Under the pieces are notes generated by a model. That model searched no databases and was not told the origin of the DNA. It saw nothing but the letters and a program-made list of their open reading frames with translations. The position numbers and the translations under genes are program-made. From an uncultured Ruminococcus sp. (lineage in GTDB: Bacteria > Bacillota > Clostridia > Oscillospirales > CAG-272), in assembly GCA_964622425.1 (NCBI GenBank), contig CAZUQN010000004.1, forward strand, positions 1-63,158: 63,158 bases of DNA, given 5' to 3'. This document shows, piece after piece, positions 1,370 to 20,512 of this stretch; position 1 is the stretch's first letter, and every line of letters starts with the position of its first letter.

Positions 1370-3298
1370 TTACACTCTCTTAAGCGAGCAGCTGAACGTC
1401 CAGAGGAAGGAGACGGTCTCGCTACCCTTCTTGTAGGAAATGCGGACTCCGTCCTTTACTCTCTCGATCTTAGGCTCGGTGATATCGTCACGCTTAGTGA
1501 ATACGGTGAGATACCGCCTTGAGGTCGGGGACCTATCGATAAGAATGAGTCTTGCTGAGGGGACGGTAACGTCGGTACGAAGGGACTTCAAGGATGGGGA
1601 GACCTCGGCGCTCACTCCCTCGGGGAGAAGGACGTTGATGCGCTCGGACCTCGCAAATCTACCCTCCACCTTGACTGTCGGGTCATCCATATGGAAATAG
1701 ATACGCACGTCACTCTCGGTGAGGTTAAGCACTTCGTCAGCGACAAGAAATACGTCATCGCCGACAAGAGCGCACAGGCGCTTGTGATAGTCGGGGTCAT
1801 AGCAATGGTGAGATGCGTCAACGGCAAAGACGTCGGGGAGTCTGTACGACTTGCGTATACCTCCCTCACGCTGAGGGCCGTATCTCCATCTGTCGATGTA
1901 CTCGTATGGCGGCTTATCGCCAAGGGTAAGCGTTGAGTGATACTCGGGCGACTTGAATATCTTACGCTCCTCGCACTGTCTGTAGGTGAAGAAGGAGGGA
2001 TCGACGACGACGGGATCGCCCTTGAGATAAAGGACGAAGGACATAGGATCCTGATGGGCGTGGCCGTTGAAAACGGGGGTGTGACAGATGAAGCCGAAGT
2101 GAGAGTCATCCTTCTTCCATCCCGTGCGGGCGAAGTACTGATTTATACCGCGCTGAAGATTATCCTCAGCGGGGGCTGTCAAGGCGTATTCACGCGCCTT
2201 AGCCTGGACGTGGGGAGGAACGGCGTCGGCACTGATATCGTCATGGATAGCGAATATCTTGGCTACCGAACCGAGCTCACCGAAAGCGGAATAGTAATCG
2301 CGTGAAATCTGCTCTCCTACCGGTCTGTACGGAGAGTCGCCTATCGGGGCAATGATGCCGTCGGGACCTATACAGATAAGTGTGTAATCGGTCGCCTTCT
2401 TGCAATAGTCAAGTATCTCGGCGGGAACATCAACGCCAAAGCTCTTAGCTACCTCGAGGAAGGAGAAGAACATATTGAGGCAAATCTGATGATAATGAGG
2501 ACTGCCTTCTATCTGTCCGCCGTCGCAGGTAAACTGCGCTCTAGCGCACCTCGTGAGCTCGTGGATAGCGAACTCTCGCCAGGAGTCGGACATATCGAAA
2601 TCCGGGAAGAGACAGGCAACTATCAGAAGGCCGAGCATCTCGTGAATATAGTGATTATGGTTTGCGTCGGGCCAATATCTCGGCGACATCTCGCGAAGAA
2701 CAAGAGCGTGCTCGTACAAGGAGTATGCGATCTTGGAGTGAAGCTCGGGAGTCATTAAGTCGCTGAAAAGTAAATAATCATAGGCAAAATTCCAAGAATC
2801 AAAGGTTCTGATGCCTACTTCAAGAGAGCGCCACGGAGTAAGTCCTGCGAAGAATCTGCGTATCTGTTGCATTTGCTCGGGTGAGGTGTTCTCATCCGGG
2901 AGAGGTCCTAAGGGGCAGGTGTCGATCCAGTTCTCCATATCCGTGAGAACCTTCCTTGCATACTTATCCTCGCCTGTAAGGTGGTAGAGCCTCGAGAGCG
3001 GCTTAAACCATCCCATACGGTTAAGGTGCCAAAGGTATTCCTCGTCGGAGGTGCGGCACTCGTTCCACGCAGGCGGTGTGCCTACGTCAAAAAGCTTGCC
3101 CTCGGTGCCGGGAAGGATGAATAAATTCTTCATATCGTTTTCCACATACGCCTTACACTTCTCGACGTAACCGGGCTTTGCCTTATCCTTCTCAAGCTCA
3201 CGAATAAGCTTATCAAAGCGCGCCTTATGAAGCTCACGCTGATGCGCGAGGTACTCGGCATCGGTATATTTTCCTATCAAAACATTCTCAAGTTTCAT
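1370..3298 (-). CDS. Heparinase II/III-like polysaccharide lyase family protein (642 aa, no signal peptide)
   Basis: Motifs typical of the heparinase II/III N- and C-terminal domains: WRSLEVGIR, DANHNHYIHEMLGL, GSPHYHQ, FNGHAHQDPMSF. GAGGAAAC RBS before the ATG at 3298. Confidence 0.85.
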   Translation of the reverse strand: MKLENVLIGKYTDAEYLAHQRELHKARFDKLIRELEKDKAKPGYVEKCKAYVENDMKNLFILPGTEGKLFDVGTPPAWNECRTSDEEYLWHLNRMGWFKPLSRLYHLTGEDKYARKVLTDMENWIDTCPLGPLPDENTSPEQMQQIRRFFAGLTPWRSLEVGIRTFDSWNFAYDYLLFSDLMTPELHSKIAYSLYEHALVLREMSPRYWPDANHNHYIHEMLGLLIVACLFPDFDMSDSWREFAIHELTRCARAQFTCDGGQIEGSPHYHQICLNMFFSFLEVAKSFGVDVPAEILDYCKKATDYTLICIGPDGIIAPIGDSPYRPVGEQISRDYYSAFGELGSVAKIFAIHDDISADAVPPHVQAKAREYALTAPAEDNLQRGINQYFARTGWKKDDSHFGFICHTPVFNGHAHQDPMSFVLYLKGDPVVVDPSFFTYRQCEERKIFKSPEYHSTLTLGDKPPYEYIDRWRYGPQREGGIRKSYRLPDVFAVDASHHCYDPDYHKRLCALVGDDVFLVADEVLNLTESDVRIYFHMDDPTVKVEGRFARSERINVLLPEGVSAEVSPSLKSLRTDVTVPSARLILIDRSPTSRRYLTVFTKRDDITEPKIERVKDGVRISYKKGSETVSFLWTFSCSLKRV

Positions 3299-3382
3299 AT
3301 CTGTTTCCTCGGTTTGTTTTATGCGCCGAAGCGTGCTTTGGGGTAGCTTCGGCGCTGTTTTAATGAGTGTTTTCTACGTTTA

Positions 3383-5311
3383 TCAAAGTCTCTTCAGTGA
3401 GCAGGTGAACGACCAGAGGAATGCGACCTCATCGCCGCCCTGCTTATAGGAGATGCGGATACCGTCCTCTACTCTCTCGATCTTAGGCTCTGTGATATCA
3501 TCGCGCTTGGTAAAGACGGTGAGATACTGTCTCGACTTATGCGCGGTATCGGTGAGAATAATGCGCGAGGTGGGAACAAGGCTATCTGAATGAAGCGACT
3601 TGTTCGCGGGTACACATTCCGCGCTCATTCCCTCGGGGAGAAGAACGTTTATGCGGTCGGACTTAGCAACTCTGCCCTCTATCTTGACGGTGGGATCGTC
3701 CATATGGAAGTAGATGCGCACGTCGGTACCTGTAACGTTAGCGACGTCGTCTGCAACAAGGAATACGTCATCACCGACAAGAGCGCAAAGGCGCTTGTGA
3801 TAATCGGGATCGTAGCCGTGGTGCGAAGCGTCTGCCGCAAAGACACCGGGGAGTCTGTATGACCTACGGATCTTGCCTTCCTTTTGAGGAGTGAACGACC
3901 ATCTGCTCGTATATTCATACGGGTGCTTATTGTCAAAGGTGAGACAGGAGTGGTACTCGGGTGACTTAAAGAGCTTACGCTCCTCGCACTCGCGGTAGGT
4001 GTAGTAGGAAGGATCGACAACTATGGGATCACCCTTAAGATAAAGAATGAAGGTCATCGGGTCGATCTGAGAGTGGCCGTTGTTTACCGGGGAGTGGCAC
4101 ATAAAGGCAAACTGCGAGGACTCGCGAGTCCAACCCGTACGCGCAAAGTACTGATCGATCTGACGCTGAAGGTGATCCTCCGCCGGAGCGCCTTTAGCAT
4201 ACTCGCGAGCTTTTGCCTGCTCTTCCTCGGGGATGACGTCGGGATCGTGATTTGGGTGAATGGCGAAGAGCTTTGCACAAGCACCAAGCTCACCGAAGCA
4301 GCCGTAGTAGCGGCGGATAAGCTCAGGACCAATGGTAGAATATCCGGTATCTCCAAAGGGAGCGATAATACCGTCCGGGCCTATCGTAGCGATTGCGTAA
4401 TCGGTCGCCTTACGGCAAACGTCAAGTATATTGTCGGGGAGTGTGAGGTCAAACTTCCTTGCAACCTCGGCAAGAGAGAAGAACATACCAAGACAGCCGT
4501 TATGGTATCCGGGGCTACCCTCAACCTGACCGCCGTCCTCTGTAAACTGAGCCTTGGCGCATCTTGAAAGCTCACGGATAGCGAACTCGCGCCAGGAGTC
4601 GGACATATCGAAATCCGGGAAGATGCAAGAGATCAAAAGCAGGCCGAGCATCTCGTGGATATAATGGTTGTGGTCGGCTTTAGGCCAATATCTCGGTGAC
4701 ATCTCGCGAAGAACAAGGGCGTGCTCGTAGAAGGAGACTGCAACCTTGGAGTGTAGCGCGGGAGTCATAAAGTCGGTGTGGAGTAAACAATCGTAGGCAA
4801 AATTCCAGGAATCGAACATTCTGATGCCTACCTCAAGCGAACGCCAAGGGTTGAGACCTGAGAATACTCTGCGTATAGCGTTGATCTCATCGGGAGTAGA
4901 ATTCTCGGTAGGGAGAGGCGGCAAGGGACAGGTGTCGATCCAGTTATCAAGGTCGGAGACAACCTTCTGTGCGTACTCTTTTTTGCCCGTTAGGTGATAA
5001 AGCTCGGAGAGAAGGCCAAACCAATGGGTTCTGTTAAGTACCCAGAGACCTTCCTCGTCGTCGGTGTGCATCACGCTCCACTGAGGCGGAGTGCCTACAT
5101 ACGTTCTGACACCGCGTGAGCCCGGGATCATAAAGAGATTCTGCATTGCGTATGCAGCCTCTTTCTCTTTTCTGTCTATAAGCTCTACGTTGTTAATATC
5201 CTTCTTGATCCAGGCTATTGCCTTGTCGCAGCGAGTCTTATGAAGCTCGCGCTGATGAGCGAGATATTCCTCGTCGGTGAAATTGTCCTTCAAAATGCTC
5301 TGTAATTGCAT
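3383..5311 (-). CDS. Heparinase II/III-like paralogue (642 aa from the corrected start)
   Basis: Collinear with 1370-3298 along its full length, with the same motifs (ADHNHYIHEMLGL, GSPGYHN, NNGHSQIDPMTF). I chose ATG 5311 (MQLQSILKD...) because GGAGG sits 8 nt upstream and it gives the same length as the paralogue. The track ORF extends to 5437. Confidence 0.85.
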   Translation of the reverse strand: MQLQSILKDNFTDEEYLAHQRELHKTRCDKAIAWIKKDINNVELIDRKEKEAAYAMQNLFMIPGSRGVRTYVGTPPQWSVMHTDDEEGLWVLNRTHWFGLLSELYHLTGKKEYAQKVVSDLDNWIDTCPLPPLPTENSTPDEINAIRRVFSGLNPWRSLEVGIRMFDSWNFAYDCLLHTDFMTPALHSKVAVSFYEHALVLREMSPRYWPKADHNHYIHEMLGLLLISCIFPDFDMSDSWREFAIRELSRCAKAQFTEDGGQVEGSPGYHNGCLGMFFSLAEVARKFDLTLPDNILDVCRKATDYAIATIGPDGIIAPFGDTGYSTIGPELIRRYYGCFGELGACAKLFAIHPNHDPDVIPEEEQAKAREYAKGAPAEDHLQRQIDQYFARTGWTRESSQFAFMCHSPVNNGHSQIDPMTFILYLKGDPIVVDPSYYTYRECEERKLFKSPEYHSCLTFDNKHPYEYTSRWSFTPQKEGKIRRSYRLPGVFAADASHHGYDPDYHKRLCALVGDDVFLVADDVANVTGTDVRIYFHMDDPTVKIEGRVAKSDRINVLLPEGMSAECVPANKSLHSDSLVPTSRIILTDTAHKSRQYLTVFTKRDDITEPKIERVEDGIRISYKQGGDEVAFLWSFTCSLKRL

Positions 5312-5490
5312 ATCATTTTCCTCCGTTTTATGCAACCGTCGTGGCTCTTGCCAATTAAAAAACCTTGCGGGAAACAGGACGAAAAACGTGCTGTTCCCTT
5401 CACCGCTAAGTATATCACACAGGGGTGTTTTTTTCAACCGAGTTTTGTCTTTTTTGGAGGGTTTGACATAAATATTTATGTATTATATAC

Positions 5491-6034: not shown

Positions 6035-9000
6035 TTACTCAGCTGCGGGAGTAGAAACGTAACCGAAGTTTACGTCGTCGAACTTAACACCGGTGCCAAC
6101 AGCGTGAGACTTGATCTGGAAGTATACGCCGTCGATCTTGCCAAGTGCAAGGTTGAAGGGATTGGATGCGGTAGCAACGTACTTGCCATTAATGTAGTAG
6201 TGGAGAGTAATGATGTTGCTATCACTAAGCTCGATGCCTACGGTAACGTCGAACCACTCGGTGAAGCCGTCTTCGCCGATAGCTACTTCGCCAAGAGCGA
6301 TGCCGCCAAGACCGGTAACTGTAACCTTGCCGCCAGCGGGAGCAGAAACCTTGAAGAAGCAAGGAACTGCGCCGTCAGACCAGAAGCTCTTGCCTGCGGG
6401 AACGTTAGCTGCAATTCTCATATCGGTATCAACAAGCTGCATCTCGAAGAGAGTATCACAGTTGAGGCTGAGTGAGAAGCTATAGAAGCCGATCGCGTTG
6501 CTTGCAGCGGTGAAGCCCTCGAAGTCATCAACGCCACCGTTGGTAGCGGGAATCCAAAGAGTAGCCTTACCCTGGAGATTTTCTCCGGGTGCGCCCATAT
6601 CGTTGAGAAGTACGTACTGACCGTCAGCGTTGATTACGGGGAAGCCGGTATCCCAACCGTTACGGTCGCCATCCTTTTCCTCGGTGGTTGCGTAGATGTC
6701 GTTCTCGTCGTTGAGATCCATATTTGCATAAGGAGTCTCGCCGGAACCGTCGAAGTTATAGTTCTTATCTACTACGTAAGAGGTGTTGCAATCTGTGCAG
6801 GTGTATGTAGCCTTACCGTCAGCGTATGCCCAAGTGAGATTCTGGTGAGTAAGCTTGGGAGCGATCTCTGCGTTACAGAGAGTACATACGGAAGCGGAAG
6901 CGCAGGTAGCAGGAGATGCTACGTGACCAAGATCACCGTACTCCTTTTCACAACGAGTACATACTGCCTTAGCCTCACAGGTAGCCTCGCCACCCTCGTG
7001 ACCGAGAGCCTCGCCGTCAACCTCGTTACAGATTGTACAATGCTTAGCGGAATCACAGGTAGCTTCTACCCACTCGTGATCACAGGTGCCAAGAGTCCAT
7101 TCCTTGCCTACAGAGAAGCCGAATGCAACGTCATCAAGCTTAATACCACTGCCCTGAGATGCAGTTCTGCCGCTCATGTAGATAGCGCCGATCTTATGAG
7201 TTGCGATAGGCATAATGGAGCTTACCTGACCAACGCTCTTGCCGTTCAAGTAGTAGTTGAGCGTCATGGTGTCGTCGGAGTTAAGCTGGATGGAGATAGC
7301 AACCTCAACCCAACCGGTGAAGTTGTCTTCGCCAACCTCGATAGTGCCAAGAGTCTTGCTGCTGTATCCCTTAACGGTTACCACGCCCGAAGCGGGAGAG
7401 GTCATCTGGAAGATAGTAACTGCAGTCTTGCTCCAATCCCAATCGGCAGTGCCTCTAGCATCAACGAGCTTGAGGTCGAAGGGAGAGGATGCGTTGTCTG
7501 AATACATATTAATCTTGAATGCTATGAAGCCGATTGCGTTGTTAGCGCAAGAGAAGTCAGCAAACGCGGTGGTAGTATTACCGTGAGGAACGAATACCTG
7601 ATACTGCTGATCAACGTCGTCAAGCTTAAGAATCTGATAGATGCTGTTGCCGTCCTCGACTACGATCTCAGCGTTACCGGAACCGTCGTGAGTGAAGCCA
7701 CGGTCACCGTTGGTGGTGCTGTTACCCTGAAGGGTTTCGGAACCGTCGTACCAGTAGTTCTTATCGGTAGTGAACGCCTTGGAGCATACGGTACAAGTAT
7801 AAGTTACAGCGCCGCTGTCGTGTGCGTAGCCAAGAGTATGACCTGCGGTATCGCCGTAAGCCTTACCACATACGTCACACTTAGCGCGAGTGTCACAGCC
7901 TGCAGTGCCGCCGGTGTGACCAAGAGGCTTGCCCTGAGTAGCGCCACAGCCCTCTACGGTACAGGTCGCGGGAGCCTCACAGGTAGCTGCGCCGAAGGTA
8001 TGACCGTTGGGCTCGCCTTCAGTTGCTTCACAGCCGTCTCTCTTACAGGTCTTAGGAGCGGTACAAGTAGCGTCAGCATAGTCGTGACCAAGAGCCTCGC
8101 CCTCGGTAGCGCCACAGCCTTCTCTCTTACAAGTCTTGGGCTCGGTACAAGTAGCCTCTGCCCAATCGTGACCAAGAACTTCTTCACCGGAGGTGAATCC
8201 ACAGCCGGGTCTGGAGCAGGATGCGGGCTCGTTACAGGAAGCGCCGCCAAGCTCGTGGCCGAGAGCGGGCTCGCCGATCATGTTACAAATAGGACAGTAC
8301 TGAGCCTCGGTACAGGTTGCGCTGATCCAAGCGTGCTCGCCTGCTTCCTTAGTTGCGCCGCAAACGGTACAGGTTGCGCCAAGAGTACAGTCGGTGATCT
8401 CATACTTACAAGTATGGATATCATAAGGCCATGCGCCTGCCATCTGGTTATTGTAACCGAAGGTGATGTCATCGAGCATAAGACCCTTACCTGCAGCGAT
8501 TGTAGAACCGGTGAGGTATACAGAGGATACACCGAAGGTGAGAGTAGTAAGAGGCTTGGAAATAGACTCGCAGTACTCGCCGTCGATGTAGTAGTGAACG
8601 GTGATTACACCGTAGTTGCCTTCGCTATTGATGGTGTTGGGATCAAGCTGGATACCGAACTTAACGTCTACCCAACCGGTCCAGCCGTTCTCATCTGTCT
8701 GAATGGTCTTAAGAACGATGCCGTCCCAGCCCTCGATCTGAACGTTGCCATCTTCGTCAGCAGCTCTTACGATGAAGAAGTTGCCTGCGATACACCACTT
8801 GGAAGACCAACGAATGGACTCGCCTGTGGTGGGATCCTTATCGCCAAGAGAGTTATCAACGAACTGAAGTCTCAAGGGAAGGTCCTTGTTATCCATACTG
8901 GAGTTGAACTTGAAGGAAAGGAAGCCAACCGCGTTGTTAGCGCCGTTGAAGCCGCCGTTACCACCGGTATTGTTGGGGATCCAGAGCTGGAGCTGTCCAC

Positions 9001-10381
9001 AGATCTTCTGCCAATCGGTACGTGTATCCTCGGGAACTACGTCGTCATCAGGATCGGGATCAACGGGAGCAGACTGGTAATCAAGAGTGGTCTTAACGAT
9101 AAGCTCGTACTGACCGTCCTTATTGATAACGGGGTAGTCGCCGTTAGCTGTGATGTAACCTCTCTCTGCGTTAACAACGGGAGTCATACCGTTGTAGTCA
9201 GTACCGTCAAGGTAATCAACGCTGGTAAGCGGGAACTCAAACTCACAAGAGGTACACCAGAAGGTGATCTGCTCGGTCTTTGTTACCTTCTCGCCCTCGG
9301 TAGTTTCGATGATCTCACACTTCTGCATAAGGGTATGAGAAGCGTAAATCTCAGTCTCAAGTCCGCAGATAGTACAAATAGCGGGATCAACACAAGTTGC
9401 CTCGGTGAGAATATGGTCAGCGGGAATACCCTCGGAGAGATTACATCTCTTACAGGTCTTGGGATTCTGGCAGTTAGCCTTTTCCCAATCGTGACCTACA
9501 GCCTCAACAACCTCGCCACAGGTGTAGCAGACAGCGGTGTCGTTACAGCCGATCTCGCCATCGCCGAAGTTGTGTCCTGCAGCAGGTGCTATAACGTTGG
9601 TGGAGGAATCGCCGCAAACCTTACAGGTGCTTACGATAGCGCCGTCAACGGTACAGGACTGCTCAACAATTGTGATCTCATACTGGTGAGCAACGGGGTT
9701 GCCCTCGGTTGCCTTACATACGGAACAGGTCTTGGGAGCGGTGCAGGTAGCATCGGTCCAAACGTGGCCAAGAGCTACGCCCTCGGTAGCGCCACAGCCG
9801 GAACAGGTCTTGGGAGCGTCACAGGTAGCATCTACCCATACGTGCTCAAGAGCCTCGCCCTCGGTAAGTCCGCAGTTGTTACAAGTCTTAGGAGCTGCGC
9901 AGGATGCATCTGCCCAGTCGTGACCCTTAGCCTTACCGGTGGTCTCGCCACAGCGGTTACAGGTCTTAGGAGCTGTGCAGGTAGCGTCTGCATAGTCGTG
10001 GCCAAGCTTCTTGCCGTCTTCAAGACCGCAAACTTCGCAATGCTTTGCAGCCTCGCAAGTTGCGTCTGCCCATACGTGAGCATCGGCATCAGCCTCGCCT
10101 TCTGTTGCTTTACATACGGAACAGGTCTTGGGGGACTCGCAGTTAGCGTCTACCCAAGTATGGCCAAGAGCTTCGCCCTCGGTCTCGCCGCACTCACAAG
10201 TCTTGGGAGACTCGCAGGTTGCGTCTGTCCATACGTGCTCATGTCCCATTCCAAATACGCCAAGAACCTTGTCTTTAACGTTGTCGAGAGTATCGACAAC
10301 AGACTCGGGAAGCATATCACAGGAAGTGAACGCAAGCAAAAGGATCATTGATACAAGGATCAATAAAGAAACCTTTTTCAT
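6035..10381 (-). CDS. Giant lipoprotein (1448 aa): Cys/His-rich ~28-aa repeat arrays alternating with three beta-sandwich (LamG/ConA-like?) modules
   Basis: MKKVSLLILVSMILLLAFTSC is a signal peptide plus lipobox. Repeats of type HxWxDATCxxPKTCxxCGxTEGEALG. Modules carry ANNA[IV]GF..FK and end in ..DD[VI].FG[YF]. AAAAGGAG RBS. Confidence 0.9.
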   Translation of the reverse strand: MKKVSLLILVSMILLLAFTSCDMLPESVVDTLDNVKDKVLGVFGMGHEHVWTDATCESPKTCECGETEGEALGHTWVDANCESPKTCSVCKATEGEADADAHVWADATCEAAKHCEVCGLEDGKKLGHDYADATCTAPKTCNRCGETTGKAKGHDWADASCAAPKTCNNCGLTEGEALEHVWVDATCDAPKTCSGCGATEGVALGHVWTDATCTAPKTCSVCKATEGNPVAHQYEITIVEQSCTVDGAIVSTCKVCGDSSTNVIAPAAGHNFGDGEIGCNDTAVCYTCGEVVEAVGHDWEKANCQNPKTCKRCNLSEGIPADHILTEATCVDPAICTICGLETEIYASHTLMQKCEIIETTEGEKVTKTEQITFWCTSCEFEFPLTSVDYLDGTDYNGMTPVVNAERGYITANGDYPVINKDGQYELIVKTTLDYQSAPVDPDPDDDVVPEDTRTDWQKICGQLQLWIPNNTGGNGGFNGANNAVGFLSFKFNSSMDNKDLPLRLQFVDNSLGDKDPTTGESIRWSSKWCIAGNFFIVRAADEDGNVQIEGWDGIVLKTIQTDENGWTGWVDVKFGIQLDPNTINSEGNYGVITVHYYIDGEYCESISKPLTTLTFGVSSVYLTGSTIAAGKGLMLDDITFGYNNQMAGAWPYDIHTCKYEITDCTLGATCTVCGATKEAGEHAWISATCTEAQYCPICNMIGEPALGHELGGASCNEPASCSRPGCGFTSGEEVLGHDWAEATCTEPKTCKREGCGATEGEALGHDYADATCTAPKTCKRDGCEATEGEPNGHTFGAATCEAPATCTVEGCGATQGKPLGHTGGTAGCDTRAKCDVCGKAYGDTAGHTLGYAHDSGAVTYTCTVCSKAFTTDKNYWYDGSETLQGNSTTNGDRGFTHDGSGNAEIVVEDGNSIYQILKLDDVDQQYQVFVPHGNTTTAFADFSCANNAIGFIAFKINMYSDNASSPFDLKLVDARGTADWDWSKTAVTIFQMTSPASGVVTVKGYSSKTLGTIEVGEDNFTGWVEVAISIQLNSDDTMTLNYYLNGKSVGQVSSIMPIATHKIGAIYMSGRTASQGSGIKLDDVAFGFSVGKEWTLGTCDHEWVEATCDSAKHCTICNEVDGEALGHEGGEATCEAKAVCTRCEKEYGDLGHVASPATCASASVCTLCNAEIAPKLTHQNLTWAYADGKATYTCTDCNTSYVVDKNYNFDGSGETPYANMDLNDENDIYATTEEKDGDRNGWDTGFPVINADGQYVLLNDMGAPGENLQGKATLWIPATNGGVDDFEGFTAASNAIGFYSFSLSLNCDTLFEMQLVDTDMRIAANVPAGKSFWSDGAVPCFFKVSAPAGGKVTVTGLGGIALGEVAIGEDGFTEWFDVTVGIELSDSNIITLHYYINGKYVATASNPFNLALGKIDGVYFQIKSHAVGTGVKFDDVNFGYVSTPAAE
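9325..10245 (-). repeat. Intragenic tandem array of ~84-90-bp units encoding the Cys3His repeat (N-terminal cluster of the 1448-aa protein)
   Basis: Roughly a dozen consecutive units of pattern C-x5-C-x(1-2)-C-x(9-11)-H. Smaller clusters at about 7775-8415 and 6790-7095. Confidence 0.7.
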
Positions 10382-10439
10382 TTTAGTTTTCTCCTTTTAA
10401 ATTTTTTGTAGGTTCTAACCTAATAAGGTTACCGAACAT

Positions 10440-10468
10440 ATTATATCATAAATATTTTTAAAGGTCTA
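10440..10468 (-). promoter_or_regulatory. Promoter of the 1448-aa lipoprotein gene
   Basis: Minus-strand TAGACC (-35), 17-nt spacer, TGATATAAT (extended -10). Duplicated at 16401-16429. Confidence 0.5.
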
Positions 10469-10528
10469 GATGTTTTTTGCATTAATTTAATTTTCATTAA
10501 TAATTACTAGAAGGAAAGGAAAAATTTG

Positions 10529-11010
10529 TGCAAAATGCCCCTCTCACCGCTTCGCGGAGCTCTCCCAAAGGCGAGCCTTATATGCGGTGCGAAGCACGAA
10601 GTGTAGGCGCGGGTGGAAAATGCGAAATGCAAAATGCAGAATTAGGAGCGAGGCGAGACAGAGTGTCATCCTGAGCGAAGTGCGTAAGCACGGAGTCGAA
10701 CCCGTAGGGTGACACAGGTGTCAGGATCTACTTAGGCTAACACGTCAACTATCTAAAAACAGTAGTTAAGGAAGCTGTCATCAAATTTGTACTAGATCCC
10801 TTCGTCGCTACGCTCCTCGGTTTTGCTCCGCTTTCACTCCACAAAACTTCGACTTCACTCCGTTTCGCTCAGGATGACACTCTAACCAACTACGCATTAT
10901 TCGGCGGGAGCAAGCCCCCGCCCTACGGGTAAAATTCTCGTCATTAATTTTTGCATTTTGCATTCTGCATTTTGCATTTGCGGACCGTCGAGGACGCCGG
11001 TCCCTACGGT
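10529..11010. repeat. Intergenic mosaic repeat, copy C
   Basis: Heptads AAATGCG AAATGCA AAATGCA (10617-10637) and their inverted counterparts TTTGCATTTTGCATTCTGCATTTTGCATTTGC (about 10950-10981). Shares CACCGCTTCGCGGAGC with copy A and CGGACCGTCG with copy B. Confidence 0.6.
10661..10882. repeat. 222-bp palindromic (MITE-like) element nested inside repeat copy C
   Basis: Perfect 19-bp terminal inverted repeats: GAGTGTCATCCTGAGCGAA (10661-10679) and TTCGCTCAGGATGACACTC (10864-10882). Inner inverted repeat GGATCTA/TAGATCC. No ORF inside. Confidence 0.6.
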
Positions 11011-11065
11011 TTATGTCACACTTTACATACTCTTTTTTTTGCTAACTACCGGTTAGCAAAAGGCA

Positions 11066-11099
11066 TAAAAACAGAGCCCGTGCGGAATGCACGGGCTCT
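11066..11099 (-). terminator. Terminator of the 1731-aa lipoprotein gene
   Basis: AGAGCCCGTGC / GCACGGGCTCT stem, with a T-run on the minus strand. Confidence 0.75.
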
Positions 11100-11144
11100 T
11101 CCCTACCCCTTTCGGGTCTGGGTGAATTTTTAGTTAGTTCTCAA

Positions 11145-14100
11145 TTACTCAGCGTAGTTGATTACAAGGTTGGAGATGAGCATCTCACCCTGGAAGTGAT
11201 AGAGGTTAAGAAGTATGTTCTTAAGCTCTTCAGGAGTTGCGAAGGTGTAGCTCATAGTATGCCATTCGCCATCGAGAACAAGATCAGTTCCCTTAAGCTC
11301 AGGATAATCTTCTGTCGAGCCATCATTGTTAACGTGAGTAGCAACAGTCTTAACCTGAACGTACGCATCCGTCTGGAAGGTCTCGCCGAGATAAGGATCG
11401 TAGAATGTGTATCTGGTGTTATCTTCAACAGTTCCTTCAATCTTGTAATCGAAGGAGAAGCTTGTAACCTTCTTGGTGCTATCAAGAGCAAATCTGAACT
11501 CAGTGAACTGCTCTGCCTCAGTGCCTGCCCAAGCGTAGGTTCTGGAAACGTAGAGTGCCTCTACCTCAGCGCCGTCCTTGTCAGCAAGAACGTATACGGG
11601 AGTACCGCCCTGTGCGTTAACGGTGGTGCACTGATCGCACTGCTTGAACTTGGAATCTACGATAGTCTTAAGAGTCTCGGAGGTAACGTTCTCAGCTGCG
11701 ATCTCGGAGTTGTAGAACTTCTCGGGAGCTACGTAGCCGAATGCGAGATCGTCGAACTTGAAGCCAGTGCCCTTAGCATTGGTCTTACCGGTAATGTAAA
11801 CAGAATTAATTCTGTAGGTGTAGATAGGCATGGTTTCGGTTACAGTTGCAACTGCTACGCCATTATAATAATAGGTAAGAGTCATGGTATTGTCATCATG
11901 AAGTTCAATCTTGATAGCAATATCGAGCCAACCGGTCCACTGGTCTGCATCAAGCTCTACAACGGCAACAGTAACGCCCTTGTAACCAGTAACCTTAGCA
12001 GTAGTCTGATTCTCGGAGCTTATTTTCTCAATGTCGAGAACAGCGAAAGAGCAATCAGTCCAGCCATCCTTATTAGGACCACCGCTCCAAGCGCCGGTTT
12101 CTCTTTCAGCATTAAGCTTGAACTGAAGGCCATTATTATTCACGTTTTTCGCATTAACCTTGAAGGAAAGGAAACCAACGGAATTATTAGCGCAAGAGAA
12201 ATCATTAAGGAGCGCGGGGGTACCCTTAAGAGGAACCCAGATCTGCTGCTGACCCTTTGCTGCACCATCCTCATCAGGACTAATCATTTCATACTGTCCC
12301 TGCTCGTTAATGGTAAGAACGTAGTCAACACCGTTGTTAACAACTTCAAGGTTGTTCTTATCGGTACCGTCTGCATAGTAACCGGTAAGGTTGTAGGATT
12401 CGCCACAACCGTTAGCGCAGGAGTAAACGAAGGTGTTCTTAGCTGCGTCCCAAGCGGAACCAGTAAGGTTATGGCCGGTAGCCTTAGCTGCTACTTCGCC
12501 ACAAACGGAGCACTTAGCATCCTCGGTACAGGTTGCGTCCTCAGCGGTGTGACCCTTAGCGGAAGCGTAAACGTAACCGCAGCTGCATTTCTCAGCCTCG
12601 GTACAAGTAGCATCAGACTTTTCATGAGCCTGACCGTCGAGCTGGAAGTGAACCTTTTCAGTGGTGCAAGCAAATACGATGTCATCGATTGCAAAGCCTG
12701 CGCCCTTAGTAGTGTTAGAGCTCTTGATGTAAACGGATCTGAGTATACCGGTATGAATATCCATAGCGCCGGTAGCAGTGCCTGCATACTTACCGTTTAC
12801 AAGGACGTTGATAGTGATTTTCTTCTCAGAGGTGAGCTGGATCATAAGAGCAATGTCGATCCAACCGTCATTCTCAGAAAGGGAAACAGTGCCAAAATTG
12901 GTGTTGTAGTTATCAATGCCGCCCTTGATGGTAACGGAACCGTCTGCTATCTTGTTGATGTTGAGTACGTTAATGTCACTCGGACCCCAGCCTGACCAGT
13001 TGGAGCCATTTCTTCTCTCAGCAAAAATAAACTCGATGTCACCGTCGGTGTTGTTGGGCTTAATCTTGAATGCGAATACGCCGAATGCGTTGTTTTCGCA
13101 GGAGAAGTCCGCAAGAGTGTCGGGATTATTGACATTGCTGGGGACCCAAAGCTGAGCCTGAGCGTTGCTGGGAGCGTCAGATTTATTGAAGTAATCGTAG
13201 TAACCGTTGGAGTTATCGCCGGTGTAAGAGGCAGTATCACCACTTGCGTTAGTGAAGGTCTCGGTACCGTCGAAGTAATGACCTGCAAGGTTGTAAGAAG
13301 CGCCGCAGTTGTTAACGCAAGCGTAAATCATAGTCGTAGCAGTTGCATCGTAACCGGAAACTGCAAGGCTATGACCGAGAGCCTTCTCTGCTACTTCGCC
13401 ACAAACGGAGCACTTAGCATCCTCAGTACAGGTTGCCTTGCCGTTGGTGTGACCAAGAGCGGGAGAAAGAACATAACCACAAGAGCACTGCTCGGGCTCG
13501 GTACAGGTTGCTTCGGAAACATCGTGGTTCTGACCGTCGAAGAAGAAGTGACCTGCTTCAGTGGTGTAACCCATAACGATATCATCCATGATGATACCGG
13601 TGTTAGCAGTATAGGTCCAACCGTTGATATAGAGCGCTCTAATATCGCCGGAATCAATAGTCATGTCACCGGAGAAGGTGCCGACGTACTCAGCGTTGAT
13701 GTAGTAGTGAGCAGTGATGGTGTTGTCATCCTTGAGCTGGATGAAGATCTTAACGTCGAACATCTCAGACCAGCCGTCCTTAGCGGGGATGGTAACAAGC
13801 TCAGTGCCTGCGTTGAAGCCACCCTTAAGAACGATGCCGTCCTCAGAGTAAGCGCCTACGTTGAGAAGCTTAATCTCGCTGGTGCCCCAACCGGTCCAGT
13901 CAGCCGCGCCTCTTTCCTTAGCTGCGGAAACATTGAACGCGGTATCAACGTTAGTCTGCATCTTGAATGCGATAACGCCGGTAGCGTTGTTAGCACAAGA
14001 GAAGCCCTGAAGGCCCTTGCCTGCGCCGTTGGAAGGAATCCAGAACATATGCTGAGAACCGGCCTTACCGGAATCAGTGTACTCATACCAACCGGTCTTG

Positions 14101-16340
14101 TTACCAGATTCATCCTTTTCCTCGGTAGTAGTGCTGTCGCCTGCTACGATAGAGCTGCCGGGAGCAGCGGTAGTAGGAGCGAAGAATGCTTCATACTGAC
14201 CAGCTTCATTGATATTGATAGCGAAACCGCCGTTCTTAGTGAATACAAAATCATTTGCAGCTGCGCCGTTGAAGTACTTGTACTCTTCGATTACGAAGGA
14301 TACGTTACAAGCGGAGCAGGTGTAGCTGAGCTTTTCCTCGTCGGAGGAGATAACAAGGTTGTGACCAAGAGGTTTACCATCGGTATCGCCACAGGTCTTA
14401 CAGGTCTTAGGAAGAACGCAAGTAGCGTCTGCCCAGTCGTGGCCAAGAGCCTCACCCTGAGTAAGACCGCAAGAGCAGGTCTCGGGCTCGGTACAGGTCG
14501 CGGGAGTAACTACGTGAGACTGATTGTCGAATACGTAGTGAGAATTCTTGGTATGGCCGAAGAGAATATCGTCCATGTAGTAACCGGAGCCTGCATTCCA
14601 AGCGTTAAGGTTAATGTATACGCAGGAGAGAGCATCACCGTCTACGGTGTTTTCGTAAGAGCCGGATGCAAGGAATGCACCGTCGATGTAGTAGTAAGTA
14701 GTAACTACGTCGTTCTCGCTATCCATAACGAAGAACATCTGAACCTCGAACCACTCGGTAGCGGAACCGCCATCAACAAGAGTAACGGGAAGCTCAACGG
14801 TGGTACGGCTGTTGTCAACCCATACGTTAGCCTTATAGCCGGTAACAACGCCCTCAGCAACGATGGGCTGAATGTCAAGAACATTGGTTCTGATACCGTT
14901 CTCGGGATTCCAACCGTTAGAGTTGTGAAGAAGAACGGAGAATACGTCCTTAGCGTAGGAGAGGTCAAGCTTAAGCTTGAAGGACATAGCGCCGATGCTC
15001 TTATTGCCGGCGTTGAACTCCTTGAAGCCGGTCTTGATCTGAGGAAGCCAAACCTGCATCTGAGTAGTGCCTGCTGCATCAGTACCGTCAACACGAGCTT
15101 CATCGGTAATTGCCTTCCAAACGCCGTTCTCGGAAACAACCTTGTTAGCGCCGCCGTTGTATGCGGAGCCGGTACCTACGTAGTTACCGATATTGGTGCC
15201 GGTGTAGCTACCAATGGTAGTGCCGGTCATATTGTCGCCATTGAAGTATACGCCCTCAGAAACAACGCTGAAGGAAACGTTACACTTAGAACAAGTGAAG
15301 GTTGCATCGGTGGTTACGATGTTATGACCATCGTACTCGCCGTAGCTTTCAGAACAAACATCACAAACTGCAAGAGTGTTGCAGGTTGCGGTGCCGCCAA
15401 CGTGACCAAGAGCCTCGCCCTCGGTGCCGCCGCAAAGCTTACAAGTCTTAGGAAGAACACAGGTAGCGTCTGCATAGTCGTGGCCGGTAGCGTCAACTTC
15501 GCTTACCTTACCACAAGTGGTACACTCACTGGGAGTTACACAAGTAGCCTCAGTCCACTCGTGACCGAGAGGGCTGCCCTTGGTATGTCCACAACCGGAA
15601 CAAGTCTGAGGAGCCTCACAGGTAGCGTCTGCATAGTTGTGACCAAGAGCCTCACCCTGGATCTCACCACAGTTGAGACAGATCTCGGGAAGTACGCAGG
15701 TTGCCTCGGTCCAGTTGTGGCCGATGCACTCGCCCTCGGTTGCGCCGCAGTTGAGACAAGTCTCGGGATTCTCGCAGTCAGCTGCATCCCAAGTATGGCC
15801 CTTTGCTACGCCTTCGGTAGCTGCGCAAACCTTACAGGTCTTAGGAATAACACAGGTAGCCTCCATCCAGTCGTGACCGGAAGCGGTACCCTCTGTTTTA
15901 TTACACTCTACGCAATACTTAGCATTGGTGCAAGTTGCGTCGATCCAGGTGTGGCCAAGCGCCTCACCGCTGATCTCGCCGCAAAGCTTACAGGTAGCGG
16001 GAGTTTCGCAGCTAGCTGCTTCCCACTCATGCTTGAGAGCATTGCCTTCAGTTTTGCTACATACGGAACAGGTCTTGGGAGCCTGGCAGGTAGCGTCGGT
16101 CCAAGTGTGGCCGAGTGCCTCGCCGTCGGTCTCACCGCACTCACAAGTCTTGGGGGACTCACAAGTAGCGTCTGTCCATACGTGCTCGTGCTCTACGGAC
16201 TGCTCAATGCCAAACCAGCCGAGTACGGTTTCCTTAGCGTCGTTAAGAGGACCGGCTACGGACTCGGGAAGCATATCACAGGACGTGAATGCGAGCAAAA
16301 GGATCATTGATACAAGGATCAATAAAGAAACCTTTTTCAT
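11145..16340 (-). CDS. Giant lipoprotein (1731 aa), paralogue of 6035-10381, with more beta-sandwich modules
   Basis: Signal peptide and lipobox identical to the 1448-aa protein. Cys3His repeat clusters at about 15270-16190, 14290-14520, 13300-13520 and 12400-12620. Repeated modules end in MDDILFGH, MDDIVMGY, IDDIVFAC and FDDLAFGY. Confidence 0.9.
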   Translation of the reverse strand: MKKVSLLILVSMILLLAFTSCDMLPESVAGPLNDAKETVLGWFGIEQSVEHEHVWTDATCESPKTCECGETDGEALGHTWTDATCQAPKTCSVCSKTEGNALKHEWEAASCETPATCKLCGEISGEALGHTWIDATCTNAKYCVECNKTEGTASGHDWMEATCVIPKTCKVCAATEGVAKGHTWDAADCENPETCLNCGATEGECIGHNWTEATCVLPEICLNCGEIQGEALGHNYADATCEAPQTCSGCGHTKGSPLGHEWTEATCVTPSECTTCGKVSEVDATGHDYADATCVLPKTCKLCGGTEGEALGHVGGTATCNTLAVCDVCSESYGEYDGHNIVTTDATFTCSKCNVSFSVVSEGVYFNGDNMTGTTIGSYTGTNIGNYVGTGSAYNGGANKVVSENGVWKAITDEARVDGTDAAGTTQMQVWLPQIKTGFKEFNAGNKSIGAMSFKLKLDLSYAKDVFSVLLHNSNGWNPENGIRTNVLDIQPIVAEGVVTGYKANVWVDNSRTTVELPVTLVDGGSATEWFEVQMFFVMDSENDVVTTYYYIDGAFLASGSYENTVDGDALSCVYINLNAWNAGSGYYMDDILFGHTKNSHYVFDNQSHVVTPATCTEPETCSCGLTQGEALGHDWADATCVLPKTCKTCGDTDGKPLGHNLVISSDEEKLSYTCSACNVSFVIEEYKYFNGAAANDFVFTKNGGFAININEAGQYEAFFAPTTAAPGSSIVAGDSTTTEEKDESGNKTGWYEYTDSGKAGSQHMFWIPSNGAGKGLQGFSCANNATGVIAFKMQTNVDTAFNVSAAKERGAADWTGWGTSEIKLLNVGAYSEDGIVLKGGFNAGTELVTIPAKDGWSEMFDVKIFIQLKDDNTITAHYYINAEYVGTFSGDMTIDSGDIRALYINGWTYTANTGIIMDDIVMGYTTEAGHFFFDGQNHDVSEATCTEPEQCSCGYVLSPALGHTNGKATCTEDAKCSVCGEVAEKALGHSLAVSGYDATATTMIYACVNNCGASYNLAGHYFDGTETFTNASGDTASYTGDNSNGYYDYFNKSDAPSNAQAQLWVPSNVNNPDTLADFSCENNAFGVFAFKIKPNNTDGDIEFIFAERRNGSNWSGWGPSDINVLNINKIADGSVTIKGGIDNYNTNFGTVSLSENDGWIDIALMIQLTSEKKITINVLVNGKYAGTATGAMDIHTGILRSVYIKSSNTTKGAGFAIDDIVFACTTEKVHFQLDGQAHEKSDATCTEAEKCSCGYVYASAKGHTAEDATCTEDAKCSVCGEVAAKATGHNLTGSAWDAAKNTFVYSCANGCGESYNLTGYYADGTDKNNLEVVNNGVDYVLTINEQGQYEMISPDEDGAAKGQQQIWVPLKGTPALLNDFSCANNSVGFLSFKVNAKNVNNNGLQFKLNAERETGAWSGGPNKDGWTDCSFAVLDIEKISSENQTTAKVTGYKGVTVAVVELDADQWTGWLDIAIKIELHDDNTMTLTYYYNGVAVATVTETMPIYTYRINSVYITGKTNAKGTGFKFDDLAFGYVAPEKFYNSEIAAENVTSETLKTIVDSKFKQCDQCTTVNAQGGTPVYVLADKDGAEVEALYVSRTYAWAGTEAEQFTEFRFALDSTKKVTSFSFDYKIEGTVEDNTRYTFYDPYLGETFQTDAYVQVKTVATHVNNDGSTEDYPELKGTDLVLDGEWHTMSYTFATPEELKNILLNLYHFQGEMLISNLVINYAE
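15270..16190 (-). repeat. Intragenic Cys3His repeat array (N-terminal cluster of the 1731-aa protein)
   Basis: Consecutive units such as HVWTDATCESPKTCECGETDGEALG, HTWTDATCQAPKTCSVCSKTEGNAL and HEWEAASCETPATCKLCGEISGEALG. Confidence 0.7.
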
Positions 16341-16400: not shown

Positions 16401-16429
16401 ATTATAACACAAAGATTTAAAAAGGTCTA
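16401..16429 (-). promoter_or_regulatory. Promoter of the 1731-aa lipoprotein gene
   Basis: Minus-strand TAGACC, 17-nt spacer, TGTTATAAT. Lies inside the block duplicated from 10381-10510. Confidence 0.5.
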
Positions 16430-16746: not shown

Positions 16747-19700
16747 TCAGGTGAAGGAAACGGTAATCGTAACCTCTCCCTTTGTGCTCCAGGTACAAAG
16801 ACCTACTCTGTACGTTTTACCCGCCTCTACCTCAAACGAGAAGGTGGAGGTAAGGTAAGCGCTTGAGGAATTAGCGGTATTGTTGCCGGCCTCGTCAAGC
16901 TCGTAAATGTCAACCCAGGAGTCGGCGGTAGGCCAGGTAAAGGTTACAGTACCAGACTCGGTAGCGGTGAATTTATAGTAAGTCTTTTCGGTAGCGTCGG
17001 AGGTGATCGTTACGGACTCAGTTCCCTCCTCAAGAACGAAGGGATTGGAGTCTGTTCCCTGCTCCGCGTCGCTCGGCTTATTTATCACTATCTCCTCATC
17101 GGTCGGAGTCAGAGTGTAATAAGTGCCGTTATTTTTTATCGCGGTGAGCGTGCCATCGGTTATTGTAAACTCGGGATCGCCTGAGTTGGGAAGCTTATTG
17201 CCGTTGTAGTATACCTCGAACACACCGTCAACGTAGGTGTAGGTAAAGGTTATTACTCTGCCCTCGGGGTCAACGATGTATATCGCAGAGGAATCAACGA
17301 GGACGCGCACGTTGGAGTTATATACGCAGGTCGCTACGAACTTGCCCTCAAGCCCCGTCTCATCCGGCGTAGGCGTGGGAGTAGGATCGGGATCCGGAGT
17401 AGGAGTAGGATCGGGAGTCGAGCCCGAGCCGTCACCGAGAGTAGCGGTAAACTCAATGTCCGCCTCTGTTCCATCCGCGGTAGCAAGAGCGAGGTAATAC
17501 TTCACTCCGTTTGCTACGGTAAGCCCCAGCTCGGTGACGCCGTCCGCAGACGCAAGAGCGGTGAGGTCGGAGCCGTACTTAGCGTTTACACTGAGGTTAA
17601 AGCTAAGAGTGAGCTCACCGTCCATCCAGGAGTCTAATACGAACCAGACGAGCCCGTCCGAGGTCTTTACAGGATAGGATGCGAAATTGCCGCCGTATAT
17701 ACCAAGCTCATAAGGTTTATCGATGCTACCGGATATAATGGGAGCGCCCGTCTTAACGTTCACGGAAATATCCGCTGCACCGGTGTTCATTAAGTTAAGA
17801 ATAACTGTATCACCCGCGCTTACGCCGTAAACGGTGTAATAGAGTGGGTTAAAATCAGCGTCATAGGCTGCCGCCATCTCATAATCAAGAACGGATACAA
17901 AGCCTCCGGTGATGATTATCACGCAATCCTCGGCAGCGGTGAAGGAGTAGTAGCTGTCTGCTCCGCCCACGAGAGTGATATCGGCAGGAAGGCTCTCAAT
18001 AACGATGGGATTATCATGACTGCCCGCGCCTCCAGAAGAGCCCGAGCCTGATCCGGCATTGCCGTTTTCATCTCCGGGAGCGGTATAGGTTATGCTGAAT
18101 AAATATTCACCTGCTGACTCAAGAGCGCCGACGTATACCGAGAAGGTGTAGACGCCACTTTCAAGATAAGAGATGTTTCTGGAAACAAAGTCGCCCTTGG
18201 AATCGTAGATATTAGCGAAGAAACTATCGCTGATGAAGGTATACGTACCTGCGCGGGTAGCTTCAAGTGAAAGCTGAATAACCTCGCCGGCAATGTCATC
18301 CGAGGTTACGGTGAGGGTGTGGTCTCCGACGGTGACGGGCTTCTTGGTAGGAGCCTCGGGGCTGAGAGCGCCCGAGTATTCACCGGTATAATCGGATACC
18401 GAGTAGGTAACGTAGGTTATAACGGGATCGGCAGAGGTCGTGTAGAAGGTGTAGGTCTCACCTGCAAGCAGAGAGACTGTGAAGCTGCCGCCAAGCGAGC
18501 CATCGGGATCGAGGGGATCGATCATAGCGCTGCCGTAGATCTCCTTATCAGCGGCGCTGAACGCTCCGAGACCCGCGGGTACGGTGAAGGTAAAGTCACC
18601 CGATGCGGGTGCGGTGAAGCTGACCTCGGTGTCCCACGTGTAGGTGAGCGCGTCTGTGACCTCAACGCGGATACCGTTCTCGGGCGCGGGAGGCTCAACG
18701 ACGCTTCCTGCAGAGCTCTCCTCCACGTTTACGGTAAAGGAAACCGTTCTGCCACCGATGCTGATTTCTACGGGATAACTTCCCACGGTACGGCAGTAAA
18801 TGCTGATAGTACCGTCAAATATCCACGTGTAAAGATCTGACGTGCAGGAGAAGGTGTCGAGTATGTAATCCGCGCTCGTACCCGCGGGAGAGAAGTTGCC
18901 AAGATAGATCTTAAGAGTGGTTGCTTCGGTCACCGTGACGGTGGAGCCAAGCTCTGTCGTGCAGCCGAGGTCTGTGTAGAAATCAAAGCTCTCGGGAACA
19001 AAGTCGGACTTCTTTTTCTCGCTGACGTAGGTCCTCTCGCCCTCGATCTGAGATACTACGAAGGTGTAGGTGTCGGGGACAGCGGTATCCTTCATAGTGA
19101 TCGAGTTGGTAGGCTGATTATACACAAAATCATTGTCCGCCTCATTCTCAAGCGAATTGGAATAGCAATCGCAGACTACGGTAAGGTCGGTGAGAGCTCC
19201 CGTCTCGGAAACGCTGAAGGAAACGGAAACCTCGTAGTAATCCACGTGATTCTCCTCGCCTGCGCCCGTCTCGGTGTTAACGTAAAGATAACCGTATGAG
19301 AAGGAGTAAACGCCGTCATCGTAGTTATAAACGTAGTTGGATGCGCCGGAGCTGTAAGAGAGGTTGTAAAGGGCCTCAAGAGTCTTCTCTGCTCCGTATG
19401 CGTCGGCAAGTGTGGAAACCGAGTAATAGTATCCAGTCAGATTATTGAGGGTGGCAGAGGGGTCAAGCATATAGCCTGTGCTCGTGCCGTTGTAGTATTC
19501 GTTATAAATACCGAAGGCTGTCTCGGGGTCGATGAGCTCAAACCACTTCTCCGTGATATCCGAGGAGGCGGTGCCCATATTGTGAGATTCGGTCTCGGTG
19601 CGGTAATATGCATATCCCTTGCCGAGCAGATATATCACGCTCTTATCCGTCTTGACGTATCCGTCAAGAGAAGGCGAGGTGCTATAATAATTATAATTAA

Positions 19701-20494: not shown

Positions 20495-20512
20495 GAATGG
20501 GTTATTGCAAAA

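Follow-up and report, generated by a model that had tools for sequence, protein, structure and literature searches.

Two giant predicted lipoproteins of an uncultured gut Clostridia bacterium alternate tandem His-Cys3 repeats with modules of a predicted concanavalin-A-like fold

Surface lectins or adhesins carried on a stalk are already known in Gram-positive bacteria, and so is the zinc knuckle as a mini-domain. YwfG of Lactococcus reportedly has one lectin domain and stalk repeats without cysteine. SusE and SusF of Bacteroidota are lipid-anchored chains of beta-sandwich modules of the carbohydrate-binding type, encoded beside polysaccharide-degrading genes. EGF-like and TNFR-type repeats are rigid spacers with an even number of cysteines, which form disulfides in oxidising surroundings. 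Here we describe a locus of an uncultured Ruminococcus sp. (GenBank assembly GCA_964622425.1, contig CAZUQN010000004.1, positions 1 to 63,158; this whole stretch of 63,158 nucleotides is called the window below), in which two neighbouring genes, A and B, encode giant lipoproteins. What appears to be new in them are extracellular tandem arrays of a unit with one His and three Cys residues (the His-Cys3 unit) and an orphan family of concanavalin-A-like (ConA-like) modules. We consider it probable that A and B are lipoproteins that bind glycans multivalently at the cell surface, their lectin modules being carried on rigid stalks stapled by a metal, most likely zinc.

An earlier sequence-only reading of this DNA had claimed two giant lipoprotein open reading frames, and their coordinates, strand and lengths are exactly as it gave them. 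Protein A has 1448 residues and protein B 1731. They share one N-terminus, MKKVSLLILVSMILLLAFTSC, which fits the G+LPPv2 pattern of Gram-positive lipoboxes; in both proteins a basic n-region and a hydrophobic core precede the lipobox Cys, as in lipoproteins exported by Sec and modified by Lgt. The same pattern is present in 78 of the 84 module-bearing homologues described below. A and B are thus predicted to be diacylglyceryl-modified and located at the surface. The n-region of neither signal peptide contains a twin-arginine motif, which rules out a Tat-exported iron-sulfur protein. There are 79 Cys residues in A and 69 in B; a multihaem c-type cytochrome is likewise ruled out, with zero CxxCH haem-attachment motifs in A, B or the neighbouring lipoprotein C (16747-20244, minus strand). 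The genes and their signals are as follows.

6035..10381, minus strand: gene A, three stalks and three predicted ConA-like modules (open reading frame; orthologues of the same architecture at 81-43% identity)
11145..16340, minus strand: gene B, four stalks, four predicted ConA-like modules and a distinct C-terminal domain (open reading frame; P0011, four module matches)
10319..10381, minus strand: signal peptide and lipobox of A (G+LPPv2 pattern)
16278..16340, minus strand: signal peptide and lipobox of B, identical to A (G+LPPv2 pattern)
10440..10468, minus strand: promoter-like site of A, TAGACC-17-TATAAT with TG (same sequence upstream of B)
16401..16429, minus strand: promoter-like site of B, TAGACC-17-TATAAT (sequence scan)
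11073..11099, minus strand: terminator-like hairpin 3' of B, 11-bp stem with 8 GC (sequence scan)

The two genes are paralogues that have kept a conserved 5' end. Approximately 125 nucleotides upstream (10381-10506 and 16340-16465) and the first 270 or so coding nucleotides are 82% identical between them; this block comprises the promoter, the 5' untranslated region, the signal peptide and the first repeats, and the remainder has diverged to approximately 33% protein identity. The pattern points to gene conversion or to selection acting on the 5' region. Long plus-strand frames lie opposite both genes (7583-10351, 922 residues; 11196-12995, 599 residues; 13278-16310, 1010 residues). They are not genes; they arise because the sense codons TTA, CTA and TCA are nearly absent from A and B (4 and 3 occurrences in approximately 1450 and 1730 codons).

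Both proteins alternate stalks of His-Cys3 units with modules of approximately 230 residues. The layout below was derived from BLASTP, profile hidden Markov models (HMMs) of repeat and module, regular expressions, Tandem Repeats Finder (TRF) and AlphaFold2 models.

9266..10243, minus strand: A stalk 1, residues 47-372, 10 short His-Cys3 units, one long-type unit and a capping hairpin (repeat HMM, regular expression)
8414..9265, minus strand: A module 1, residues 373-656 (BLASTP/HMM to other modules)
7766..8413, minus strand: A stalk 2, residues 657-872, 7 units, 4 of them of the 28-residue C-x5-C-x4-C form, ending in the hairpin VTYTCTVC (HMM, regular expression, TRF)
7088..7765, minus strand: A module 2, residues 873-1098, the modelled module (AlphaFold2; predicted ConA-like fold by Foldseek)
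6776..7087, minus strand: A stalk 3, residues 1099-1202, 3 units and the hairpin ATYTCTDC (HMM, regular expression)
6038..6775, minus strand: A module 3, residues 1203-1448 (BLASTP/HMM)
15270..16190, minus strand: B stalk 1, residues 51-357, 11 units and the hairpin ATFTCSKC, residues 104-236 modelled (HMM, regular expression, AlphaFold2)
14517..15269, minus strand: B module 1, residues 358-608 (BLASTP/HMM)
14295..14516, minus strand: B stalk 2, residues 609-682, 2 units and a hairpin (HMM, regular expression)
13533..14294, minus strand: B module 2, residues 683-936 (BLASTP/HMM)
13290..13532, minus strand: B stalk 3, residues 937-1017, 2 units and a C-x3-C hairpin (HMM, regular expression)
12633..13289, minus strand: B module 3, residues 1018-1236 (BLASTP/HMM)
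12390..12632, minus strand: B stalk 4, residues 1237-1317, 2 units and a C-x3-C hairpin (HMM, regular expression)
11730..12389, minus strand: B module 4, residues 1318-1537 (BLASTP/HMM)
11148..11729, minus strand: B C-terminal domain, residues 1538-1731, unrelated to the module, possibly resembling a carbohydrate-binding module (CBM) (weak CBM_4_9)

BLASTP and the module HMM agree on three modules in A, as had been claimed, and on four in B, where at least five had been counted. Residues 1538-1731 of B, which have no BLASTP or HMM match to the modules, form a different domain; its similarity to CBM_4_9 is weak (E=0.039, below threshold). The proposed module landmarks are real: QxW[IV]P, F[SN]xxNNAxGFxSFK, Wx[DE][VI], YY[IL][ND]G and DD[IV]xFG. 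The seven modules are only 26-35% identical to one another, so different ligands are probable. Their invariant residues are mostly Gly, Pro and aromatic, the polar ones being just D-D, T and Y. In an AlphaFold2 model of A residues 738-1100, built on a 62-row alignment, the predicted local distance difference test score (pLDDT) exceeds 90 over the last two stalk units and the entire module. Against the PDB, Foldseek returned 265 matches at E<=1e-3 for this module (probability 1.0, E down to 5e-7), with target-normalised TM-scores of 0.45-0.58 and approximately 10% identity. The leading matches are legume lectins, ERGIC-53/LMAN1, Lactococcus YwfG, lectin domains of sialidases, CBM40 and a CBM of a phage Dit protein. 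The model thus assigns the module to the concanavalin-A-like lectin/glucanase fold, a curved two-sheet beta-sandwich or jelly-roll, in line with the beta-sandwich that had been proposed for comparison with LamG/ConA-like folds.

By sequence the module belongs to no catalogued family. In Pfam and NCBIfam neither the whole proteins nor, with the cut-off relaxed to E<=10, individual modules had a match; membership of ConA-type families (Laminin_G_3, Lectin_legB and others) was not found, and searches of PDB sequences with the protein and with the module profile recognised no family. The array had been suspected of lying outside recognised families, and these searches place neither repeat nor module in one. 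An exhaustive profile search of 1.84 billion representative sequences shows the module family to be very small, with 89 matches (60 at E<=1e-30), and a single protein can have as many as seven modules; Pfam domains were not found in its distant members either. The module profile added just one new protein from a word-indexed database.

Are the modules binders or enzymes? A and B might be multi-catalytic enzymes, acting as lyases or hydrolases on a ConA-like scaffold (as in PL7, PL20 and GH16) together with the two heparinase II/III-like genes that adjoin A. The PL20 glucuronan lyase 2zzj (target-normalised TM-score 0.56, with the lowest root-mean-square deviation of the top 50) and the PL7 lyase 8bzk are among the Foldseek matches. 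However, the top matches are mostly lectins or CBMs, the invariant residues listed above include no recognisable catalytic motif, and three to seven tandem copies are typical of binding modules. We regard a catalytic role as unlikely. Binding need not mean sugar: ConA-like and LamG domains bind proteins too, and A and B could be protein-binding adhesins or a protective surface coat without a glycan ligand. Their divergence is apparently far faster than that of housekeeping genes, as is typical of exposed, selected surfaces; on metagenomic contig L089, P0019, which may be a paralogue, is 35% identical to A, against 80% for EPSP synthase. Yet the great majority of the closest structural neighbours bind carbohydrates, and the weak CBM_4_9 signal in B and the lyase-like neighbours point to glycans, so that this explanation, too, seems unlikely to us.

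The stalks are built from the His-Cys3 unit. By the pattern [HC]-x6-8-C-x5-C-x1-4-C, A has 20 units and B has 17, which bears out the dozens of units that had been described. The stricter H-x6-C-x5-C-x1-4-C finds 18 and 17, against 0.013 and 0.008 expected from 2000 shuffled sequences. An HMM made from 18 seed units recovers 17 units in A and 16 in B at a domain E-value of 1e-3 or less. The long-type unit of A stalk 1 reads H231...C244...C253-x2-C256 (H-x12-C-x8-C-x2-C). Each cluster is closed by a hairpin [TY]-x-C-x2-3-C, the TYTC-x2-C-type segment of the earlier reading; there are seven of these (ITFWCTSC, VTYTCTVC, ATYTCTDC, ATFTCSKC, LSYTCSAC, MIYACVNNC and FVYSCANGC).

We examined spacing in 1622 units from the best 120 of at least 1674 homologues of A. 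The spacing C-x5-C occurs in 1601 of these units and C-x2-C in 1369. The distance from one first Cys to the next is 26 residues in 747 of approximately 900 cases, and TRF finds a 78-nucleotide period in the DNA, with 84 nucleotides in A stalk 2. The period of about 28 residues first proposed thus has to be corrected to 26, the 28-residue form being confined to that stalk. His had been placed some 9-11 residues after the third Cys; this holds (third Cys-x9-His in 1217 units, 75%), and a position six residues before the first Cys describes it just as well (H-x6-C in 1471 units, 91%). The consensus of 1071 units is H-[DTNS]-W-x-[DE]-A-T-C-T-x-P-K-T-C-x-x-C-G-x-T-E-G-x-A-L-G. H1, C8, C14 and C17 are 100% conserved in it by construction, since the search pattern demanded them; independently conserved are A6 (93%), G22 (92%) and G18 (69%). 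At the start of A stalk 2, one unit carries a Cys where the others carry His (C658-x6-C665-x5-C671-x2-C674), a feature shared by orthologues. At the DNA level the units are only 70-73% identical to one another, which rules out a recent origin by slippage; the array is old and kept at the protein level.

The repeat is not a peculiarity of these two proteins and is widespread in surface proteins of gut Clostridia. Among 8000 scored candidates, at least 1674 relatives of A have E<=1e-5. Of the best 120, 84 share the design of lipoprotein plus modules (2-5 modules each) and the other 36 share the repeat alone (9-22 units). In these 36 it is fused to extracellular domains that include BspA-type leucine-rich repeats (LRR_5), Flg_new, CAP, SLH, dockerin and transglutaminase, and the repeat is therefore best seen as a general spacer. 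The 80 listed genomes that carry it belong to Lachnospiraceae, Oscillospiraceae, Ruminococcus, Christensenellales, Roseburia inulinivorans, Faecalibacterium and a few Coriobacteriia. A scan of genome contigs with protein A found no close relative, and a consensus query of four units did match; the same query found nothing in viral contigs (IMG/VR). The sole significant structural match to the repeat model described below is BFVD entry A0A8S5QLF9 (E=4e-7, 26% identity), a metagenomic "Podoviridae sp." fragment that contains the repeat and is annotated as an S-layer homology domain. Since the IMG/VR scan was empty, it is probably a bacterial or prophage-borne sequence. Pfam labels on some repeat-bearing homologues (Cbm74, C1_1, GDH_HM2) either denoted another domain or were matches to the Cys/His pattern that fell below threshold. 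Only one homologue had a name ("leucine-rich repeat protein"), a cluster look-up gave none, and full-text literature searches, literal sequence strings included, found no description of the repeat or family.

One carrier comes from a cultured human gut bacterium. In R. inulinivorans DSM 16841 (NZ_ACFY01000152.1, L013 5959-6726), a 255-residue lipoprotein has four His-Cys3 units directly behind the lipobox, together with a capping hairpin and a C-terminal domain of approximately 110 residues. Its first unit has Gly at the position of the third Cys, with an additional His three residues upstream.

What holds such a unit together? AlphaFold2 models a five-unit array (B residues 104-236) at pLDDT 96.8 from 52 in-register five-unit homologue windows, a value that may be inflated by a multiple sequence alignment assembled in register from tandem windows. 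Each unit has three short strands (positions 3-4, 12-14 and 20-21) and no helix. Given the strands at 12-14 and 20-21, C14 is the last residue of a strand and C17-G18 fall in the turn after it, the classic arrangement of a metal knuckle. Like zinc knuckles and ribbons, the unit has four candidate Cys/His ligands and, in the model, a C-x2-C(G) turn at a beta-hairpin. The confident model also fits the earlier suggestion of rigid stalks presenting lectin-like modules. Foldseek of the repeat model against the PDB gave no significant neighbour (best E=1.3), with low power on 26-residue units; the weak neighbours are mostly zinc modules (Parkin RBR, PKC C1, zinc ribbons of ribosomes and polymerases, ZifS). 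The repeat profile against PDB sequences finds just the CxxCG knuckles of rubredoxin, rubrerythrin and L32, at E>0.1. A longer profile scores E=2e-9 against eukaryotic C2H2 arrays (ZNF568). A C2H2 zinc finger is ruled out by the single His per unit and the helix-free model, and the match comes from the shared 26-28-residue Cys/His period.

We favour the view that each unit clamps one metal ion, most likely zinc. It has three Cys and one His, an odd Cys count; its P-x-x-C-x-x-C-G motif resembles a metal knuckle; the export signal is of the Sec type and CxxCH is absent; and the repeat carriers among the 80 listed genomes are all gut or rumen anaerobes. The replacement of His by Cys at position 1 would make no difference to a metal site but would be hard to reconcile with disulfides. 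The likely ligands are H1, C8, C14 and C17, because H-x6-C is the tighter spacing (91% versus 75%), because of the His-to-Cys exchange, and because of the bookkeeping at array ends, where n units have n+1 His and one extra CxxC hairpin. In this register the last His would join the capping hairpin. Alternatively, C8, C14 and C17 may be completed by the next His (H27).

Alternatively, the cysteines might bind no metal and form disulfides, also between units, or remain free thiols in units that packing and hydrogen bonds hold together. In favour of this, the proteins lie outside the cell, DsbA/VKOR-type enzymes occur in some Clostridia (PMC12453122), and a ResA/TlpA-like redoxin is encoded in the window (42902-46474). 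However, three Cys cannot all pair inside one unit, His is as invariant as Cys (though the search pattern required both), Cys takes the place of His at position 1 of one unit, the carriers are strict gut anaerobes, and the redoxin is of the reducing (ResA) type. Disulfide-using bacteria show a bias to even numbers of Cys in exported proteins (PMC2823432), and the units show the opposite. According to the same study, aerobic Firmicutes largely exclude Cys from exported proteins (average approximately 0.5 Cys), and in anaerobic Firmicutes a third of exported proteins have none (PMC2823432). Taken together, we find metal-free stalks quite unlikely. Least likely of all, and very improbable, is a role in metal handling, either as a zinc reservoir or scavenger with some 45 predicted sites or as redox iron centres forming an extracellular electron path: the site density is high, the knuckle resembles that of rubredoxin and the repeated zinc sites of streptococcal Pht proteins can serve zinc homeostasis (PMC3842936), but the same repeat is a spacer beside unrelated functional domains, no zinc transporter or regulator lies nearby in the window, Cys3His sites are typically structural with slow exchange, Sec-type export excludes pre-assembled iron-sulfur clusters, and one centre per 26 residues is probably too wide for electron hopping.

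It is thus the glycan-binding lipoprotein on metal-stapled stalks that we develop here. A and B would be separately transcribed in a strictly anaerobic gut Clostridia bacterium, exported unfolded via Sec and anchored to lipid at Cys21. Stalks of 26-residue mini-domains would space the ConA-like (L-type lectin or LamG-like) modules and hold them off the membrane. Each mini-domain would be a three-stranded knuckle in which one His and three Cys clamp one metal, most likely Zn2+, acquired after export. In such a stalk metal would take the part that disulfides play in EGF repeats and similar stalks, which would suit an anoxic habitat, and the stalk may be long and rigid enough for the assembled protein to reach through the cell wall as a multivalent device for glycan binding or adhesion. 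Acidic polysaccharides captured in this way may be further processed by the adjoining heparinase II/III-like enzymes. Several findings weigh against this proposal. No sugar- or calcium-binding residues were identified in the modules. Some enzymes, too, have the ConA-like fold: the matches include PL7 and PL20 lyases, and by target-normalised TM-score 2zzj (0.56) ranks third, close behind a sialidase lectin domain at 0.58. Finally, the heparinase-like proteins have no signal peptide and no transporter is adjacent, which makes the link to glycan capture weak.

On the minus strand, the genes follow the order MoxR, DUF58, a BatA-like VWA protein, a 907-residue VWA protein, lipoproteins of 540, 784 and 1165 residues, B, A and the two heparinase II/III-like genes, so that a MoxR-DUF58-BatA-VWA operon is directly followed downstream by five consecutive lipoprotein genes (540, 784, 1165, 1731 and 1448 residues).

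16747..30970, minus strand: MoxR-DUF58-BatA-VWA operon and three lipoproteins (1165, 784 and 540 residues), upstream of B (open reading frames, Pfam)
1370..5437, minus strand: two heparinase II/III-like genes, 642 residues each, downstream of A (Pfam)

The heparinase-like paralogues (1370-3298 and 3383-5437, both minus strand) are distant from HepC, at 95 and 87 bits versus cut-offs of 600-700; the true start of the second is likely an internal Met, giving 642 residues. The Bat-like operon and the lipoproteins occur in the same order on four other metagenomic contigs (L006, L087, L088 and L089), and a heparinase II/III-like gene follows the A-type lipoprotein in L001-L005, L087 and L088 and not in L089. 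Part of this synteny may reflect kinship of the genomes, whose EPSP synthases are 67-97% identical, and its functional weight is moderate. The EPSP synthase of the host is 97% identical to a protein from a metagenome-assembled Clostridia genome, in keeping with an uncultured Clostridia lineage. Pairs of MoxR and VWA proteins are often maturation factors of metal centres or complexes, and a functional link between the operon and the lipoproteins is possible. It is tempting to go further and propose that the His-Cys3 unit represents a novel extracellular fold stapled by metal, which serves strict gut anaerobes as an all-purpose rigid spacer instead of disulfide-rich repeats, and that the MoxR-DUF58-VWA operon helps to load its dozens of metal sites outside the cell. 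As a whole, we consider this extended proposal unlikely.

Several other genes of the window deserve mention. Protein C contains two copies (19840-20085) of a distinct motif, H-W-x-A-x-C-x-H ... H-x-D-x-[DN]-x-D-G-x-C-D-x-C, which is also present once in the N-terminus of the 784-residue lipoprotein (20513-22867, minus strand); the copies are 41-45% identical. The motif looks like a metal site (C-x-H plus C-x2-C) combined with a calcium-type DxDxDG loop. Neither protein has a Pfam or NCBIfam match. Further away, a 1190-residue protein (42902-46474, plus strand) has a ResA/TlpA-like thiol-disulfide oxidoreductase domain, and a 516-residue protein (47268-48818, minus strand) has 4Fe-4S (Fer4_5) and redoxin domains. 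Possibly the two form an extracytoplasmic thiol-reducing system that could keep exported cysteines reduced. A 2759-residue subtilase (49955-58234, plus strand; Peptidase_S8, PA and Fn3-like domains) is a further giant surface protein; it is fused to seven BspA-type LRR_5 stretches and has no His-Cys3 repeat.

Most of the earlier reading stands, namely the genes, the repeat, the hairpins, the modules, their predicted ConA-like fold and the novelty of the family, while the period and the module count of B had to be revised and the repeat proved to be a common building block. If the unit is indeed stapled by zinc, it would represent a general and so far uncatalogued route by which gut anaerobes build stiff extracellular spacers. 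A sequence model of the repeat would annotate thousands of "hypothetical" regions in surface proteins of Lachnospiraceae, Oscillospiraceae and Ruminococcus, and the repeat could serve protein engineering as a compact modular rod. The lipoproteins with lectin modules are a candidate glycan-capture device in a Gram-positive lineage without a cultured representative. Should the operon assist in metal loading, A and B would be the first concrete client of the enigmatic MoxR-DUF58-VWA operon type.

How do A and B compare with systems already described? Close in design is YwfG (PDB 7yl4/7yl5), a Gram-positive surface ConA-like lectin on a repetitive stalk that is itself among the Foldseek matches. 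Unlike YwfG, A and B are predicted to be lipid-anchored, have three or four lectin-like modules each and have His-Cys3 stalks, and there is no detectable sequence similarity. With SusE and SusF they share the lipid-anchored chain of beta-sandwich modules. The latter, however, belong to outer-membrane systems of diderms with SusC/D, of which no genes were found at the A/B locus; their modules are of another fold family, and they have no metal-knuckle stalks.

The unit itself weakly resembles the CPxCG knuckle of rubredoxin, ribosomal L32 and Rpb9, which also have a C-x2-C-G turn at a beta-hairpin and four Cys/His ligands in fewer than 30 residues. Known zinc knuckles and ribbons are cytoplasmic and single or paired, whereas the repeat forms up to 22 tandem extracellular copies with the signature H-x6-C-x5-C-x2-C. 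C2H2 arrays have a similar C..C..H period of 26-28 residues; their beta-beta-alpha fold has two His on a helix, whereas the repeat has one His, and its model has no helix. The pneumococcal Pht proteins are also surface proteins with several repeated zinc-binding motifs (PMC3842936). They differ in their His-triad ligands, their fold and their genetic link to AdcAII zinc uptake, and no zinc-uptake genes were found near A and B. In architecture, the stalks are like those of the EGF-like and TNFR type, in which small tandem Cys-rich units serve as spacers between binding modules; unlike them, the His-Cys3 repeat has an odd number of Cys, a His in every unit and anaerobic hosts.

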